DNA from: a virus
Lineage: Duplodnaviria > Heunggongvirae > Uroviricota > Caudoviricetes
Strand: one strand, 5' to 3'
IMG/VR virus record: IMGVR_UViG_2579778952_000009
Location: 1 to 15,746 of that record
DNA: 15,746 nt
The notes under the pieces were generated by a model. That model ran no database searches, was not told the DNA's origin, and saw only the letters and a program-made list of their open reading frames with translations. Position numbers and translations under genes: made by a program. Shown here in pieces: positions 1 through 15,746 of this stretch (its first letter is position 1; each line of letters begins with the position of its first letter).

Positions 1-276
1 GTGGCTTCTGTTTCTATCAGCTGTCCCTCCTGTTCAGCTACTGACGGGGTGGTGCGTAACGGCAAAAGCACCGCCGGACATCAGCGCTATCTCTGCTCTC
101 ACTGCCGTAAAACATGGCAACTGCAGTTCACTTACACCGCTTCTCAACCCGGTACGCACCAGAAAATCATTGATATGGCCATGAATGGCGTTGGATGCCG
201 GGCAACCGCCCGCATTATGGGCGTTGGCCTCAACACGATTTTCCGCCATTTAAAAAACTCAGGCCGCAGTCGGTAA
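1..276 (+). CDS. insA: IS1 InsA (transposition inhibitor / N-terminal part of the InsAB' transposase)
   Basis: 91-aa ORF with GTG start, [43 protein letters not shown]..., the recognisable IS1 InsA zinc-finger protein. Confidence 0.9.
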
Positions 277-698
277 CCTCGCGCATACAGCCGGGCAGTG
301 ACGTCATCGTCTGCGCGGAAATGGACGAACAGTGGGGATACGTCGGGGCTAAATCGCGCCAGCGCTGGCTGTTTTACGCGTATGACAGGCTCCGGAAGAC
401 GGTTGTTGCGCACGTATTCGGTGAACGCACTATGGCGACGCTGGGGCGTCTTATGAGCCTGCTGTCACCCTTTGACGTGGTGATATGGATGACGGATGGC
501 TGGCCGCTGTATGAATCCCGCCTGAAGGGAAAGCTGCACGTAATCAGCAAGCGATATACGCAGCGAATTGAGCGGCATAACCTGAATCTGAGGCAGCACC
601 TGGCACGGCTGGGACGGAAGTCGCTGTCGTTCTCAAAATCGGTGGAGCTGCATGACAAAGTCATCGGGCATTATCTGAACATAAAACACTATCAATAA
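195..698 (+). CDS. insB: IS1 InsB reading frame (expressed as InsAB' transposase via -1 frameshift)
   Basis: 167-aa frame overlapping insA in the -1 frame, with the slippery A6C motif at 249-258. The translation matches IS1 InsB from memory. Confidence 0.85.
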
Positions 699-8093: not shown

Positions 8094-8527
8094 GCAGGTT
8101 AACCGCGATTATCTCCGCTCTGGTTATCTGCATCATCGTCTGTCTGTCATGGGCTGTTAATCATTACCGTGATAACGCCATTACCTATAAAGAACAGCGC
8201 GATAAAGCCACGTACATCATCGCTGACATGCAGAAGCGTCAACGTGACGTAGCAGAACTCGATGCCAGATATACAAAGGAGCTTGCTGATGCTAACGCGA
8301 CTATCGAAAGTCTCCGTGCTGATGTTTCTGCTGGGCGTAAGCGCCTGCAAGTCGCCGCCACCTGTGCAAAGTCAACGACCGGAGCCAGCGGCATGGGCGA
8401 TGGAGAAAGCCCAGGACTTACAGCAGATGCTGAACTCAATTATTACCGTCTCCGAAGTGGAATCGACAAGATAACCGCGCAGGTTAACTACCTGCAGGAA
8501 TACATCAGGACGCAATGCCTGAATTAA
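8090..8527 (+). CDS. rzpD: Spanin, inner membrane subunit (Rz-like)
   Basis: ATG 8090 overlaps the endolysin stop. It has an N-terminal transmembrane segment [23 protein letters not shown] followed by a coiled-coil region. The track ORF starts earlier, at 8078. Confidence 0.8.
8289..8474 (+). CDS. rzoD: Spanin, outer membrane lipoprotein subunit (Rz1-like), embedded in rzpD in the +1 frame
   Basis: Embedded [39 protein letters not shown]... with a signal peptide, a lipobox-like VSAC and a Pro-rich segment. The start is chosen at the ATG preceding the signal sequence; the track ORF begins at 8262. Confidence 0.6.
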
Positions 8528-8559
8528 TTTTTTTGCAAATCACAAAGTCCATTTAATGA

Positions 8560-8582
8560 GCCTCGCGATGCGGGGCTTTTTG
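8560..8582 (+). terminator. Intrinsic terminator after the lysis cassette (first of a tandem pair)
   Basis: gccucgc-gau-gcggggc stem (one G-U pair) followed by UUUUU. Confidence 0.5.
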
Positions 8583-8588
8583 CAATAA

Positions 8589-8613
8589 ATGCGTACCGCA
8601 ACGCATGTTTTTT
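8589..8613 (+). terminator. Intrinsic terminator after the lysis cassette (second of a tandem pair)
   Basis: atgcgt-accgca-acgcat hairpin followed by GTTTTTT. Confidence 0.5.
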
Positions 8614-8728
8614 ACACCGAACCTGCCCCTTTGGAATGGGCCTTTGAGGATACCAGTTAGTGCTGGCGAGCCTCGGTGGGCTGGTTTCCTGTGCGGCAAA
8701 GGTTCATTTCAAAGAGTAGGTACACGCT

Positions 8729-9226
8729 ATGAAATCATTAACCCTCTTCAATCAACCAATTCGTATCGGTGAAGATGGCATGATCTGCCTCACTGATATG
8801 TGGAAAGCCAGTGGTAAAAGTGAATCTGAATCGCCTTACCACTACCTGCGAAACAAGCAGACCAAAGAGTTCTTAGCCGAGCTGGAGAAAAACCACGAAT
8901 CTGTGGTTTTTACTGAGCGCGGTGTACACGGTGGAACATATGGCGGGAAGTTTGTTGCTTACGATTATGCGGCTTGGTTAAACCCCGGGTTCAAGTACGC
9001 GGCCTATAAAGTCCTCGATGACTACTTCACCGGAGAACTTCAGCATCGCAACAGCTTAAGTGCGCAGCTCAACATGAAATGTCATGAGTTTGACCAGAAG
9101 AAAGACATGGCGAGCTTCTGCGGACAAGGGCTGGCAGCATGGCGCTATACGAAGCCAGTGTTGGTCGCTGAGATTAACTCCCTGGCTAACCAGCTGCAGA
9201 TTACGATCCCCGGGCTTCCGGGATGA
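8729..9226 (+). CDS. KilA-N domain protein, 165 aa (antirepressor-like)
   Basis: IRIGEDGMICLTDMWKASGKSESESPYHYLRNKQTKEFLAELEK fits the KilA-N pattern (DG-x-I-x-x-T-x-x-x-K-A-x-GK ... W/YLR-x-x-x-T-x-EFL). Its stop overlaps the next ORF's start (ATGA). Confidence 0.7.
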   Translation: MKSLTLFNQPIRIGEDGMICLTDMWKASGKSESESPYHYLRNKQTKEFLAELEKNHESVVFTERGVHGGTYGGKFVAYDYAAWLNPGFKYAAYKVLDDYFTGELQHRNSLSAQLNMKCHEFDQKKDMASFCGQGLAAWRYTKPVLVAEINSLANQLQITIPGLPG

Positions 9227-9534
9227 GTGATCGTGTTATTGAATGCGCCTCCAGAGCGGGGCGCGACTTCTCAGAGTTCATGAAAGGCGAGAAGGGCATG
9301 ATGGAAGCATTGGCCTCGGTGGATGAGTTTGGCGAGCAGCTGCGCCTCAACGGCTGTGTCAATCATCACTTTGTTAGCTACATGATGCGGAACTCGATCA
9401 TGCAGGCATTCATGGACATGGCAAAAGCCGAGAGGAAAGAAGAGCGCCGGCGGAAGCAAAAGCGAAGTAGCCATTACAAAGCCTATCTACGGGTGGGCTT
9501 GATAATGGCTTATACCCTACACGGGATAACTTAA
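9223..9534 (+). CDS. Hypothetical protein, 103 aa, translationally coupled to the KilA-N gene
   Basis: ORF overlapping the upstream stop by 4 nt, with a basic C-terminal stretch KAERKEERRRKQKRSSHYKAY. No motif recognised. Confidence 0.45.
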   Translation: MSDRVIECASRAGRDFSEFMKGEKGMMEALASVDEFGEQLRLNGCVNHHFVSYMMRNSIMQAFMDMAKAERKEERRRKQKRSSHYKAYLRVGLIMAYTLHGIT

Positions 9535-10167: not shown

Positions 10168-10223
10168 TGTAGTACCTTCCATGTGATATGAGGGGCGTAG
10201 TCTGCACGATTATCTAAATTGCT

Positions 10224-10457
10224 TCAATCTGGTCTGATCTGTTTTCTGAGCAATTCAGTAATGTCACTCTTTTCTTTGTTTGCTTCAGGAGAAACTCTTT
10301 TTTCTGAGCACAGTCTCCGGCGGCAGGCTTCAATGACCCAGGCTGAGAAATTCCCAGACCCTTTTTGCTCAAGAGCGATGTTAATTTGTTCAATCATTTG
10401 GTTAGGAAAGCGGATGTTGCGGGTTGTTGTTCTGCGGGTTTTGTTCTTCGTTGACAT
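10224..10457 (-). CDS. ylcI: YlcI/YnfO-family small protein (DUF3950-like), 77 aa
   Basis: MSTKNKTRRTTTRNIRFPNQMIEQINIALEQKGSGNFSAWVIEACRRRL... resembles the YnfO/YlcI family from memory. It is chosen over the overlapping plus-strand ORF 10219-10485 because it is co-oriented with ybcV and carries the recognisable motif. Confidence 0.5.
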   Translation of the reverse strand: MSTKNKTRRTTTRNIRFPNQMIEQINIALEQKGSGNFSAWVIEACRRRLCSEKRVSPEANKEKSDITELLRKQIRPD

Positions 10458-10559
10458 GAGGTTGCCCCGTATTCAGTGTCGCTGATTTGTATTGTCTGAA
10501 GTTGTTTTTACGTTAAGTTGATGCAGATCAATTAATACGATACCTGCGTCATAATTGAT

Positions 10560-10845
10560 TATTTGACGTGGTTTGATGGCGTAGATGCACGTTGTGACAT
10601 GTAGATGATAATCATTATCATTTTGCGGGTCCTTTCCGGCGATCCGACAGGTTACGGGGCGGCGACCTCGCGGGTTTTTGCTATTTATGAAAATTTTCCG
10701 GTTTAAGGTGTTTCCGTTCTTCTTCGTCGTAACTTAATGTTTTTATTTAAAATACCCCCTGAAAAGAAAGGAAACGACAGGTGCTGAAAACGAGCTTTTG
10801 GGCCTTTGTCGTTTCCTTTCTCTGTTTTTGGCCGTGGAATGAACA
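10560..10845. other. Lambda-type cohesive end site (cosQ-cosN-cosB), with the 12-nt cohesive-end sequence GGGCGGCGACCT at 10657-10668
   Basis: The sequence ...cgacaggttacg|gggcggcgacctcgcgggtttttgctatttatgaaaattttccggtttaagg... matches the lambda right-end/left-end junction and cosB from memory, including the dyad aaaggaaacgacagg...cctttgtcgtttccttt before the nu1 start. Confidence 0.8.
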
Positions 10846-11027
10846 ATGGAAGTCAACAAAAAGCAGCTGGCTGACATTTTCGGTGCGAGTATCCGTACCA
10901 TTCAGAACTGGCAGGAACAGGGAATGCCCGTTCTGCGAGGCGGTGGCAAGGGTAATGAGGTGCTTTATGACTCTGCCGCCGTCATAAAATGGTATGCCGA
11001 AAGGGATGCTGAAATTGAGAACGAAAA
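10846..11027 (+). pseudogene. nohD: Terminase small subunit Nu1 homolog, 5' fragment (first ~60 codons only)
   Basis: MEVNKKQLADIFGASIRTIQNWQEQGMPVLRGGGKGNEVLYDSAAVIKWYAERDAEIENE matches lambda Nu1 from memory. Similarity stops after ...gagaacgaaaa (11027), where the sequence continues as side-tail-fibre repeats in another frame. Confidence 0.8.
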
Positions 11028-13022
11028 TCCGAAACTGCAGCGGCATCATCAAAGAACGCGGCGAAAACCTCAGAAACGAATGCAGCTAATAGTGCACAGG
11101 CGGCAGCGACCTCAAAGACTGCATCGGCAAACTCCGCGACAGCAGCCAAAAAATCAGAAACCAACGCGAAAAATAGCGAGACAGCCGCAAAGACGAGCGA
11201 AACCAACGCAAAGTCCAGCCAGACGGCAGCGAAAACCAGCGAAACGAATGCCAAAGCCAGTGAAACTGCGGCAAAAAACAGCCAGGTTGCAGCAGCCCAA
11301 AGCGAGAGCGCGGCAGCCGGTTCTGCGACTTCAGCAGCTGGATCAGCAACTGCTGCGGCTAACAGCCAGAAAGCTGCGAAGACGAGTGAAACTAACGCAA
11401 AGTCCAGCCAGACGGCAGCGAAGACCAGCGAAACGAATGCCAAAACCAGCGAAACTGCGGCGAAAAACAGTCAGGATGCAGCAGCCCAAAGCGAGAGTGC
11501 TGCAGCTGGTTCTGCAAGCGCGGCGGCTGCTTCTGCCATTGCATCAGCCAACAGTCAAAAAGCTGCAAAAACCAGTGAAACCAACGCAAAGGCGAGCGAG
11601 ACTGCGGCTGCTAACTCGGCGAAAGCATCAGCTGCAAGCCAGACGGCTGCAAAAGCAAGTGAAGACGCAGCCAGGGAGTACGCAAGCCAGGCAGCAGAGC
11701 CGTATAAATATGTCTTACAGCCGCTTCCTGATGTGTGGATACCGTTTAACGATTCACTGGATATGATTACGGGCTTTTCGCCATCATATAAAAAGATTGT
11801 TATTGGTGATGATGAAATAACAATGCCTGGCGACAAGATTGTAAAGTTTAAACGCGCATCAAAAGCAACTTACATTAATAAATCTGGTGTGCTGACAGAG
11901 GCTGCAATCGATGAACCTCGCTTTGAAAAGTATGGATTGCTGATTGAAGGGCAGCGTACAAACCTGTTAATAAACAGCACAAATCCATCAAAGTGGAACA
12001 AGTCATCAAATATGATTTTAAATACATCAGGTGTAGATGATTTTGGTTTCCAGTACGCAAAATTCACATTAAAACCAGAAATGGTGGGGCAAACCTCAGC
12101 CATTTCTATTGTCACAGTATCTGGAAGCAAAGGATATGATGTTACCGGCGATGAAAAGTATGTAACTATCTCATGCAGGGTACAAAGTGGGACTCCAAAT
12201 TTAAGATGTCGATTACGATTTGAAGAATATGATGGATCTACCTACAAATTCCTGGGTGATGCTTACTTAAATATGACAGATTTATCGATTGATAAAACTG
12301 GCGGCGCTGCAAGTCGTATTACTGCAAGGGCTGTTAAAAATGAAGCAAGCAAATGGATTTTCTTTGAGGCAACAATTAAGGCACTTGATACAGAAAATAT
12401 GATCGGTGCGATGGTGCAATATGCACCACCAAAAGGGGGAAGCACTGGTGCAGATGATTATATTTATGTTGCAACTCCTCAGGTCGAAGGCGGTTCGTGC
12501 GCTTCTTCGTTTATTATTACTGAGGCAACGCCAGTCACAAGAGCCAGTGATATGGTGAATATACCAACAAATAACAATATCGGTACACCACCTTTAACAT
12601 TTCTAGCTGAAGTTCATACAAACTGGAACGAAACGCCAAATGCAGCACCACGAATTTTTGATACCAGTGGTGGGAGCACAACTCCGGGTCAATATATAAG
12701 TGTTGCTATTAGTTCAACATTATTTCCTGGTGTTACGATGCACAATAAAAACGGTAGTACAGTAGCCGCCGTATCGCCAGTATTATTTGAATAAAAATCT
12801 GTTCTTGGATTTGTTTTAAATGAATCTGGTAATGTGCATTTCGTTAGCAATGCCCAGCATGGGACTCCTAAAACCACGGATCATGTCGGTGTTAAATCTG
12901 GTTATTTCTTCAGGATTGGGGGACAGACTAATAGCGGTCTACGTCATCTTTTCGGTCACATTCGTAATTTTCGTATATGGCATAAAGAATTAACCGATGC
13001 ACAAATGGGAGAGGTAATATAA
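11028..13022 (+). pseudogene. Side tail fibre (Stf-like) gene, 3' portion, fused to the nohD fragment by deletion and carrying an in-frame TAA at 12792-12794
   Basis: Frame 0 is open from 11019 and encodes Stf-type repeats (AAKTSETNAKSSQTAAKTSETNAKASETAAKNSQ...), then a C-terminal domain. A single TAA at 12792 interrupts the same frame, which continues to 13022 with a LamG-like ending (GHIRNFRIWHKELTDAQMGEV). Confidence 0.7.
11187..11564. repeat. Imperfect tandem direct repeat, two copies of 189 bp (63 codons), inside the tail-fibre fragment
   Basis: Copy 1 starts gcaaagacgagcgaaaccaacgcaaagtccagccagacggcagcgaaaaccagcgaaacgaatgcc... at 11187. Copy 2 starts gcgaagacgagtgaaactaacgcaaagtccagccagacggcagcgaagaccagcgaaacgaatgcc... 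at 11376. Each copy contains shorter degenerate sub-repeats encoding AKTSETNAK. Confidence 0.75.
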
Positions 13023-13303
13023 TGCGAGACTTAATTATCAAATTCACAGACAAGGCCGACTTTTCGGCCTTTATGGATAGCATTGGTTATGACGATGACG
13101 AGGTGATGCAGAACAATGTTCTCATTGATGTGATAGGTAACGTGTACAAAGAAACCGGGGAAATTACTGAAGATGGCGAGCCGGTATGTGTTAAGGAAGA
13201 CGGATATTTTGTAAACGTGCGCATCATTAATGATGTGAAAACACCGTCAATATTCGATGAATACGCGGTTGTTGTTGAGCATCAACTTCGTGGCTGGATG
13301 TGA
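13022..13303 (+). CDS. Hypothetical protein, 93 aa, acidic
   Basis: ORF whose ATG overlaps the upstream stop (TAATG). No motif recognised. It lies in the tail-fibre module. Confidence 0.45.
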   Translation: MRDLIIKFTDKADFSAFMDSIGYDDDEVMQNNVLIDVIGNVYKETGEITEDGEPVCVKEDGYFVNVRIINDVKTPSIFDEYAVVVEHQLRGWM

Positions 13304-13312
13304 GGGAGACAA

Positions 13313-14017
13313 ATGGCTACATCGACAGTAATTCCTGGAGATATCACCACGCTAAAGGGAGATGTCAGTAAAACTAAGGAAGATATTTCCTCAATTAACG
13401 GAAAAGTATCAACGCTTCAGATTGATATGACCAGTGCAAAGCAGGATATCAGCACCAGATACACAAAAACTGAAGTTGATAATAAGCTGAAAAACAAAGT
13501 GGAAGCGAACGATCTGGAAAGCGGTCGTTATGGCGGTGATTTTTACCCGCTGACTGGCCGCGAAGCGTTTTATTTATGGGGGTTGGGCACGACTACTGCG
13601 GCGGCAAACCTTTATCTTAATCCTGACCCTGCAATTTCGTCTGTACTGCGGTCCACATCGTCTATCCGCTATAAACATTCAGTAGAGACGATAGATTCAG
13701 AGCACGCCGATGTCATTTTCAGGATGCGCCCTGTGTGGTACAGGTCGCAATGCGAAAATGACAGGCGTGACTGGGGGTTCTACGGATTGATTGCCGAGGA
13801 AGTAGGAGAAATTGCCCCTCAGTTTGTACACTGGCGACCAGCTAACGAAGATGATGCTCCTGAAGCTATTTCCAGCAATGGCCTTGTTGCCGAAGGTGTA
13901 ATGTACGAACGTCTGGTTGTTCCACTGATTCACCATATCCAGAAGCTGACTGAAAGAGTTGATGAACTTGAGTCAGAATTAAAGTTGTTATTAACTTCCC
14001 GAAGCGATATCGGATAA
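13313..14017 (+). CDS. Tail-fibre-like protein with C-terminal intramolecular chaperone (peptidase S74-like) domain
   Basis: GAGGGAG SD upstream. The N-terminal region is heptad/coiled-coil-like. The C-terminal SSIRYKHSVETID...RPVWYRSQ...WGFYGLIAEEVGEIAPQFVHW...LVVPLIHHIQKLTERVDELESELKLL fits the S74 chaperone pattern (SDxRLKxNI...Y.W......GfIAQEVeevlPeaV). Confidence 0.65.
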   Translation: MATSTVIPGDITTLKGDVSKTKEDISSINGKVSTLQIDMTSAKQDISTRYTKTEVDNKLKNKVEANDLESGRYGGDFYPLTGREAFYLWGLGTTTAAANLYLNPDPAISSVLRSTSSIRYKHSVETIDSEHADVIFRMRPVWYRSQCENDRRDWGFYGLIAEEVGEIAPQFVHWRPANEDDAPEAISSNGLVAEGVMYERLVVPLIHHIQKLTERVDELESELKLLLTSRSDIG

Positions 14018-14027
14018 AGGAGGAATA

Positions 14028-14321
14028 ATGGATATAACACCTTTCCTTCATGCACTTTGTGCTGTGGCTGCGCAGGTACTGGTTGGTCTTTTTACCGGAA
14101 ACTGGGCTTACGGGGCGATAGCCGGTTGTACGTTCTTCATTGCGCGTGAACACACCCAGGCAGAATATCGCTGGATCGAAATGTTCGGGCATGGCAAGCG
14201 AATGAATATGCCGTGGTGGGGCGGTTTTGATACACGTGCATGGGATGTGGCAAGCCTGATGGATTTTGCTGTGCCGGTGGTGGCGTGTCTGCTGGTCTGG
14301 CTGTTGGTTAATCGTGGGTGA
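14028..14321 (+). CDS. Small hydrophobic (membrane) protein, 97 aa
   Basis: AGGAGG SD 7 nt upstream. Two or three hydrophobic segments (FLHALCAVAAQVLVGLF, YGAIAGCTFFIA, FAVPVVACLLVWLLV). Tightly coupled to the upstream gene. Confidence 0.5.
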   Translation: MDITPFLHALCAVAAQVLVGLFTGNWAYGAIAGCTFFIAREHTQAEYRWIEMFGHGKRMNMPWWGGFDTRAWDVASLMDFAVPVVACLLVWLLVNRG

Positions 14322-14996
14322 AAAAAGGTGAGCTGTATATGCAACGGAGGAAGAAAACTCGTTGCTGGAAGCCTGGAAAAAGTATCGGGTGCTGCTAAAC
14401 CGTGTGGACACTTCCGTAGCACCAGATATCGAGTGGCTTATTCAACCATAATAAACAGTATGTATATCATAGGTTATTAATTGTGAGTTTTTTCGGTGTG
14501 TTATTTGTTTGTTTGATGTTATGCTTTTGCGCCCCAAAAGGTTGTTTAGATGTATTTTATCAATTGATTTTCAATATCGTTTAATAAAGAAAAATTAAGC
14601 AAGCTGGATGTTGGTTTTTTGTTAATTGAATGGTTCTAATAATGTTTTTTTACTGTTGTTGAATGTGACTTGATAAGAAATGCAAGTAAAAATGATACTC
14701 TTTTTATTTTAAATTCAAACGGTTGACATATATATAGCAAGAGGTTTCAGGTGCGTTGTAGTGAGTTTATGTTAATAAAAAGCATAGTAAGCGTTGAAAA
14801 ATGTAACTTTGAAATACGTTAGAATAAAAAACAATATACATATAATAATTTAATCTTAAATGAAACTTATTAAAATTTGCAAACTATAATTTTGTGTATA
14901 AAAATATAAATGCACATCATCCTGATTATGATTGTGTATTTAATTGGCTGTTATTTGACTACTATCAACTTGTTTTAATTTTATGATAGGTGCAAG

Positions 14997-15746
14997 ATGG
15001 ATTATGTTTGCTCCGTAGTTTTCATCTGTCAATCATTTGATTTAATTATAAACAGGAGAGTTATCTCGTTCAAAAAAAATTCATTGTTTATTGTAAGCGA
15101 CAAAATTAGAAGAGAGTTACCAGTATGCCCCTCTAAACTAAGAATTGTTGATATAGATAAGAAAACATGTTTATCCTTTTTTATCGACGTGAATAATGAG
15201 TTGCCTGGCAAATTTACTCTTGATAAGAATGGCTATATTGCTGAAGAGGAACCTCCATTATCGCTTGTTTTTTCTCTGTTTGAAGGGATTAAAATAGCAG
15301 ACTCACACTCCCTTTGGTTAAAAGAAAGACTATGTATATCCTTACTTGCCATGTTCAAAAAACACGAAAGTGTAAATTCATTTATACTAACAAATATAAA
15401 TACATTTACATGTAAAATTACTGGAATAATCAGTTTTAATATTGAGCGGCAATGGCATTTAAAAGATATTGCGGAATTGATTTATACGAGTGAAAGTTTA
15501 ATAAAAAAAAGATTAAGGGATGAAGGAACGTCATTTACTGAAATATTGAGAGATACTAGGATGAGGTATGCAAAAAAACTCATAACTTCAAACTCTTATT
15601 CTATCAATGTCGTAGCCCAGAAATGTGGCTATAACAGTACTTCATATTTCATATGTGCATTTAAAGATTATTATGGTGTCACGCCATCTCATTATTTTGA
15701 GAAAATAATCGGCGTCACAGATGGAATAAACAAAACAATTGACTGA
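14997..15746 (+). CDS. appY: AraC-family transcriptional regulator AppY
   Basis: 249 aa, [41 protein letters not shown]..., with a C-terminal AraC-type HTH ([27 protein letters not shown]). Matches DLP12 AppY from memory. Very AT-rich gene, ending at the window edge with TGA. Confidence 0.9.

Follow-up and report, generated by a model that had tools for sequence, protein, structure and literature searches.

A nohD::stf deletion scar in a DLP12-type cryptic prophage of E. coli that retains a lambda-like cos site

How does a lambdoid prophage come to have a cos site that is followed by the beginning of a terminase small subunit gene and then, within 60 codons, by side-tail-fibre (stf) sequence, and what does such a join still encode? 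This question is raised by a 15,746-nucleotide stretch of DNA, analysed here as a whole and referred to as the window (IMG/VR virus record IMGVR_UViG_2579778952_000009). The window is a DLP12-type lambdoid cryptic prophage, running from ybcK to appY, at the argU...appY/ompT locus of E. coli. Among lambdoid prophages, DLP12 is the textbook case of lost morphogenesis genes with cos and nohD still in place. The placement between argU/fimZ and appY-ompT was confirmed by the appY end of the window and by the locus of Z0117EC0005, which is near-identical to the window from position 2784 onward. This locus contains, on its left, fimZ, tRNA-Arg, a truncated integrase, nin genes, rusA, quuD, an ompC/nmpC-type porin, essD, rrrD and Rz; in its middle, a KilA-N protein, a DUF1398 protein, ynfO, a terminase small subunit pseudogene and a fibre protein pseudogene with its N-terminus missing; and on its right, three small tail-fibre ORFs, a tfa fragment, appY, ompT and envY. 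The late region was likewise confirmed as DLP12-type by rusA, quuD, the porin (a Pfam match), essD, rrrD, the lambda-like cos and nohD. Neither the annotation of the near-identical Z0117EC0005 locus nor the Pfam matches of the window's left end include a large terminase subunit or any head or tail gene.

Two other parts of the window differ from some of its relatives. At the left end (1-1903), a ybcK-type serine recombinase ORF (749-1903) has an IS1 transposase (195-698) immediately before it; the IS1, this recombinase and a P22 Ar fragment set the left end apart from the Z0117EC0005 locus, and among complete genomes only E200086 covers it (in 2 pieces, 99.8%). To the left of the point corresponding to 2784, where an IS3 transposase is found immediately upstream, the Z0117EC0005 locus has no match to the window. 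Further right, a module at 8206-9469, made up of a KilA-N/ORF11CD3 protein (8729-9226) and a 103-aa ORF, takes the place of the bor segment of lambda and K-12 DLP12 and is 99.6% identical to its counterpart in the intact SB0258h1 prophage.

The join itself, its two parts and the tail-fibre sequence that follows are as follows.

10846 to 11027, plus strand: nohD'/nu1' fragment, starting with ATG, 60 codons plus 2 nt; encodes the complete winged-helix DNA-binding domain without the oligomerisation and gpA-binding part
11025 to 11027, no strand: deletion junction with the 3-bp microhomology AAA; the left parent reads ...AACGAAAA up to the break and GCTGCG after it, the right parent ...CAAAGAAA up to the break and TCCGAAAC after it
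11028 to 13022, plus strand: stf remnant, codons 130-794; no start codon, no N-terminal PF08400, in-frame TAA at 12792-12794
13022 to 14451, plus strand: distal tail-fibre module, comprising a 93-aa ORF, then a tail-fibre-domain protein of 234 aa that carries a Peptidase_S74 chaperone domain, then an ORF of 97 aa, and a tfa fragment at 14341-14451

On the left side of the junction, BLAST against phage lambda aligned window 10295-11027 to lambda 48141..48502/1..372 with 96.6% identity over 734 columns, spanning cos and running into nu1. As lambda nu1 starts at 191, a match that ends at 372 corresponds to codon 60 plus 2 nt, and the nu1 homology stops in the window right after GAGAACGAAAA, at 11027. 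A preliminary description, made from the letters alone, had placed the end of the nu1 similarity after gagaacgaaaa (11027), with about 60 nu1 codons kept and Stf-type repeats in another frame from 11028; the lambda alignment puts the end at the same base, and the rest of this description held as well. On the right side, window 11025-13500 matches the stf region of E300010 (L002 3001-5476) at 99.96% identity, and across window 11025-15746 only 6 of the 4722 positions are different in the locus of 980-2, which has an intact stf gene of 794 aa. These identities are far above chance on both sides. Alignment to nu1 and to stf thus defined both the junction and its microhomology: the two homologies share the three bases AAA at 11025-11027, and where strains with a longer nohD read GCTGCGCCGG... 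past the breakpoint, the window reads TCCGAAACTGC. Such an overlap is compatible with illegitimate recombination, although in A-rich sequence it exceeds only slightly what chance would give. Read directly from the coordinates, codons start at 10846 + 3n in nu1 and at 11028 + 3n in stf, so that the join is out of frame. By megablast, 8 of the 5426 complete E. coli genomes contain the junction in full. We considered an assembly artefact and ruled it out, because the junction is carried by 8 independent complete genomes.

The part of nu1 that was kept is well conserved. All 60 of its residues are identical to the DNA-binding domain of lambda gpNu1 (PDB 1J9I), and they also span the 56-residue construct 7LW0. 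The Pfam profile Phage_Nu1 (PF07471) matches with E = 7e-36 along no more than positions 1-78 of its 164, and the C-terminal two thirds of gpNu1, which mediate self-assembly and gpA binding (residues about 60-181), are absent from the window. As the homology ends at codon 60, this is a pseudogene fragment and not a functional terminase subunit. RefSeq annotates it in Z0117EC0005 as a terminase small subunit pseudogene with its C-terminus missing.

Beyond the junction, the stf frame that starts at 11028 encodes uninterrupted Ala/Ser/Thr/Lys/Glu/Asn repeats and then a globular C-terminal part, and is open to 12794. It holds no ATG, GTG or TTG before 11733, the site of its first in-frame start codon. 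The preliminary description had nu1 fused to the middle of an stf gene. The breakpoint lies instead at codon 130 of 794, just past the N-terminal PF08400 domain; the remnant has no Pfam match, and full-length Stf of E300010 matches PF08400 at residues 3-132. What was lost is therefore the first 129 codons, corresponding to this 'prophage tail fibre N-terminal' domain, and the remaining shaft and C-terminal domain are collinear with codons 130-794 of 980-2 Stf, except for the stop at 12792 and a small number of further substitutions. At position 12792 the window has TAA where four comparison loci have CAA (Gln), namely those of Z0117EC0005, E300010, TCM3e1 and 980-2. This TAA is a second, independent inactivating mutation in the stf remnant.

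Within the stf shaft, a segment of about 189 bp (63 aa) is duplicated in tandem, with copies at 11172-11413 and 11361-11602 that are 83.5% identical. Three clustered differences from 980-2 (11382, 11387 and 11393) fall inside it and look like gene conversion between the copies.

The distal tail-fibre module also lies behind intact stf in the 980-2 and SB0258h1 prophages. In the window, the tfa fragment is followed by appY (14997-15746), in which the window ends. Together with the stf shaft and C-terminus, the surviving tail-fibre sequence covers 11028-14451, about 3.4 kb. An earlier claim that the whole morphogenesis region is missing is thus correct for the terminase large subunit, head and tail genes, all of which are absent, and too broad for these approximately 3.4 kb of distal tail-fibre sequence.

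Upstream of the nu1 fragment, we aligned the cos region base by base to lambda.

10627 to 10633, plus strand: cosQ-equivalent heptamer GGGTCCT, identical to lambda 48473-48479, which we take to be cosQ
10652 to 10673, plus strand: cosN, identical to lambda 48498-17, with the 12-nt cohesive end GGGCGGCGACCT at 10657-10668
10709 to 10823, plus strand: cosB region, with R3 (10709-10724), R2 (10768-10783) and R1 (10808-10823) and an A/T-rich IHF-site spacer

The boundaries of the cosB elements are those that we assume from the lambda literature, and the identities were computed. R2 and R1 are identical to lambda, and R3 has one change, C53T, at its first base (10709), a site that is not among the differences of either K-12 DLP12 or LH10-b-1 from the window. 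The R2-R1 spacer differs from lambda by 1 gap and a few substitutions, and cosQ, cosN and R3/R2/R1 keep the lambda order and spacing. The impression that cos is intact was therefore borne out at the sequence level, with cosQ, cosN, R2 and R1 identical to lambda and one edge substitution in R3. Judged by this conservation, if a lambda-like phage superinfects, its terminase should still recognise the cos of the window. Just to the right of cosN, position 10679 (lambda +23) carries a C-to-T change, the first difference after cosN, that is absent from eight comparators (lambda, K-12 DLP12 and six other E. coli prophages).

The same chromosomal site looks very different from strain to strain: at argU-appY, some strains carry a prophage with complete head and tail genes and others carry differing, lineage-specific deletions.

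PM4-5, 980-2 and SB0258h1: complete lambda-like prophage
K-12: full nohD, with an A fragment (aaaD) joined to tfaD
LH10-b-1: A fragment joined to a lom fragment
E300010: nu1 to lambda 697 (codon 169) joined at the stf ATG, with a 4-bp GATA overlap
24A16CRGN010: head genes as far as a capsid gene interrupted by a satellite, followed by IS1 and mid-stf
Window type: nu1 codon 60 joined to stf codon 130

The complete prophages of PM4-5, 980-2 and SB0258h1, like phage lambda, share with the window cos and nu1, and in them nu1 begins the order nu1-A-W-B-C-D-E...J-lom-stf; unlike the window, they hold the approximately 19.7 kb that it is missing. K-12 DLP12 (qsr') resembles the window in ybcK/nin/rusA/quuD, the nmpC-type porin, essD/rrrD, cos, nohD, tfa fragments and appY-ompT, in a lambda-like cos/nu1 region (97.3% identity) and in having lost the morphogenesis genes and kept cos. 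It differs in having a full-length nohD and aaaD joined to tfaD, with breakpoints at PM4-5 7775 and in tfa, whereas in the window nohD is cut off at codon 60 and most of stf remains, together with its accessory ORFs. Since the K-12 and window deletions are not nested, they are independent events; the K-12 and LH10-b-1 deletions are not nested either, and deletions at this site have therefore arisen independently more than once. The existence of independent deletion alleles with other breakpoints at the same locus indicates that such deletions recur. The allele of E300010 and PEC41 is also a nu1::stf scar, and in E300010 it lies at the same locus, next to a right flank that is almost identical. 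Unlike the window, this allele is 711 bp longer (nohD to lambda 697 and stf codons 1-129), has the 4-bp GATA overlap and keeps the stf ATG.

The nu1(697)::stf-ATG junction is base-identical in PEC41 (L011 5461-5581) and E300010 (L002 2560-2680), which are different prophages at different loci; the PEC41 copy adjoins intS and a tRNA-Arg gene, and its Q and lysis genes differ. This identity indicates that deletion scars spread between prophages by recombination. In addition, two DLP12-type prophages, those of 980-2 (L015 13187-19636) and 24A16CRGN010 (L014 136-6796), carry a satellite-like element inside the major capsid gene. This element, which encodes an integrase, AlpA, an Icd-like protein, a primase and SSB, resembles a capsid-forming PICI, and in 980-2 a full-length major capsid gene and a decoration gene lie behind it.

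From the junction and its relatives, we infer both the mechanism of the deletion and the number of its steps. It is very probable that the window descends from a DLP12-type prophage in which illegitimate recombination at the AAA microhomology removed everything between nohD codon 60 and stf codon 130, leaving an element that makes no particles and keeps cos. Recombination between these two 3-bp sites would have taken out the rest of nohD (its 3' two thirds), terminase A, every head and tail gene, lom and the N-terminal domain of stf. By alignment coordinates, the missing stretch would span 19,664 bp in lambda, about 19.77 kb in PM4-5 and about 19.73 kb in SB0258h1, and 30.3 kb in 980-2, where the satellite is inserted. 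Translation of nohD' would then run into a meaningless Arg-rich reading of stf, and the stf remnant would be left without a start codon and with the nonsense codon at 12792. When we queried complete genomes with the two flanks for a direct ancestor, no genome had both flanks at 100% without the junction. The left flank reaches at most 99.6% identity to any non-junction genome, and the best right-flank relatives carry unrelated left halves. With both flanks mosaic and no direct ancestor among the genomes queried, a base-by-base reconstruction of the event is out of reach, and a comparison of right-flank mismatches for phylogenetic signal gave 2-6 differences that were mostly private or clustered in repeats.

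The locus is thus best seen as a recombinational mosaic, and the number of steps depends on which relatives are given weight. The morphogenesis genes may have been lost earlier, by erosion through an A'::'lom stage like that of LH10-b-1 and then one like that of E300010, with the window junction arising as a secondary 711-bp deletion in that scar. The breakpoints of LH10-b-1, E300010 and the window are perfectly nested, on the left at PM4-5 7129 < 7454 < 7687 and on the right in lom, at the stf ATG and at stf codon 130; relative to E300010, the window is missing exactly L002 2290-3000 (711 bp); and E300010, at the same locus, shows 2 mismatches to the window-type Z0117EC0005 in about 6.4 kb from the junction into ompT. 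The flanks point elsewhere. The left flank of E300010 is 98.0% identical to the window, whereas SB0258h1, which comes closest on that side (99.6%, its proteins identical from RrrD to YnfO), has the full set of head and tail genes. On the right, the closest chromosomal relative is 24A16CRGN010, with 2 mismatches in 12.1 kb and a left half 94-98% identical to the window; it keeps full nohD, A, W, B, C and D up to the satellite-interrupted capsid gene. Furthermore, the E300010-type junction occurs in 2 genomes only, one of them at another locus. Weighing these observations, we hold stepwise erosion to be a tentative reading, a plausible minority view, and place most of the remaining probability on a direct deletion of about 19.7 kb. 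The single deletion of the preliminary description accordingly stands as a nohD'/stf deletion junction; that it was single is not demonstrable, with a nested E300010 intermediate on one side and full-gene relatives of the flanks on the other.

We think it unlikely that the junction did not arise within the molecule at this site, but by illegitimate recombination between two lambdoid elements or by ready-made import through homologous recombination. Identity does shift sharply at the junction (against E300010, 98.0% on the left and 99.96% on the right), the same stf allele (99.9%) occurs in another prophage, at the icd/e14 locus of TCM3e1, and the E300010 junction recurs in the different PEC41 prophage, which shows that scars move between elements. 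However, the near-identity on the right runs through the tfa fragment into chromosomal appY-ompT, so the stf block belongs to the locus and not to an incoming phage, and the outcome and consequences would be the same as those of an intramolecular deletion.

A different question is whether the deletion created a gene, as the join opens a long reading frame.

10846 to 11766, plus strand: 306-aa ORF, nu1 codons 1-60 followed by 246 out-of-frame stf-repeat codons

The encoded sequence begins MEVNKKQLADIFGASIRTIQNWQEQGMPVLRGGGKGNEVLYDSAAVIKWYAERDAEIENE and continues into a stretch rich in Arg, Gln, Leu, Lys and Pro, with a tail pI of about 12. The tail is an out-of-frame (+1) reading of the stf repeats because the stf part lies in another frame than nu1. 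Taken as a genuine chimeric gene, the ORF would provide the Nu1 DNA-binding domain with a new, highly basic tail: the start region of nu1 is intact and identical to lambda from 181 into the ATG, the winged-helix domain is encoded in full, and the ORF lies downstream of the late genes quuD, essD and rrrD. Yet the same alternative frame runs for 281 codons without a stop in the intact stf of 980-2, the exact protein has no entry in a collection of 15 billion proteins and no homologue, and both halves of the junction are pseudogenes according to RefSeq. Evidence from conservation is impossible here because the junction allele is clonal. A scan for promoters and terminators over 10200-13100 gave counts not above those of shuffled sequence. 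We rejected the ORF as a real gene, given that its alternative frame is also open in intact stf and that it lacks a database entry; the probability that it is one seems very small. The ORF is a true open frame that is an artefact as a gene, its long tail a compositional by-product, in agreement with its initial reading as a frame artefact. It is no less improbable that the fusion, made from a late transcript, would supply free Nu1 winged-helix with a polybasic tail that acts as a dominant-negative decoy, sitting on R elements in the cosB of a superinfecting lambda-like phage or in that of the resident cos, and hinders terminase assembly; if it did, a packaging-level exclusion function would have arisen from a deletion scar.

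As it has no gpA, no Nu1 C-terminal domain and no head or tail genes, the element cannot package DNA or form particles. The function left to its cos, and the consequences for packaging and recombination, we infer from established lambda biology. From a lone cos in the chromosome, a helper phage could do no more than initiate packaging; normal termination needs a second cos 38-52 kb downstream. Packaging driven by a helper from the cos of the window would thus be one-ended at most and proceed rightwards into appY-ompT. Binding and nicking of this cos by the terminase of a lambda-family helper may also produce a double-strand end that stimulates recombination. In K-12, lambda-DLP12 hybrids that carry DLP12 R, Rz or nu1 are viable and half of the crossovers adjoin cos, and breaks at cos were proposed as a stimulus of lambda-DLP12 recombination (De Paepe 2014, PMC3945230), the one relevant paper among those we found on chromosomal cos cleavage in cryptic prophages.

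The window junction is thus an ordinary decay scar, a lineage-specific deletion allele of a known cryptic prophage whose two halves RefSeq already lists as pseudogenes. Its modest value lies in the series to which it belongs: one locus offers the full range from an intact prophage to several scars, independent or nested, with 3-4 bp of microhomology in each. Such a series is usable for the tempo and mechanism of prophage decay, and also for the study of retained cos sites as entry points for recombination with, or transduction by, helper phages.
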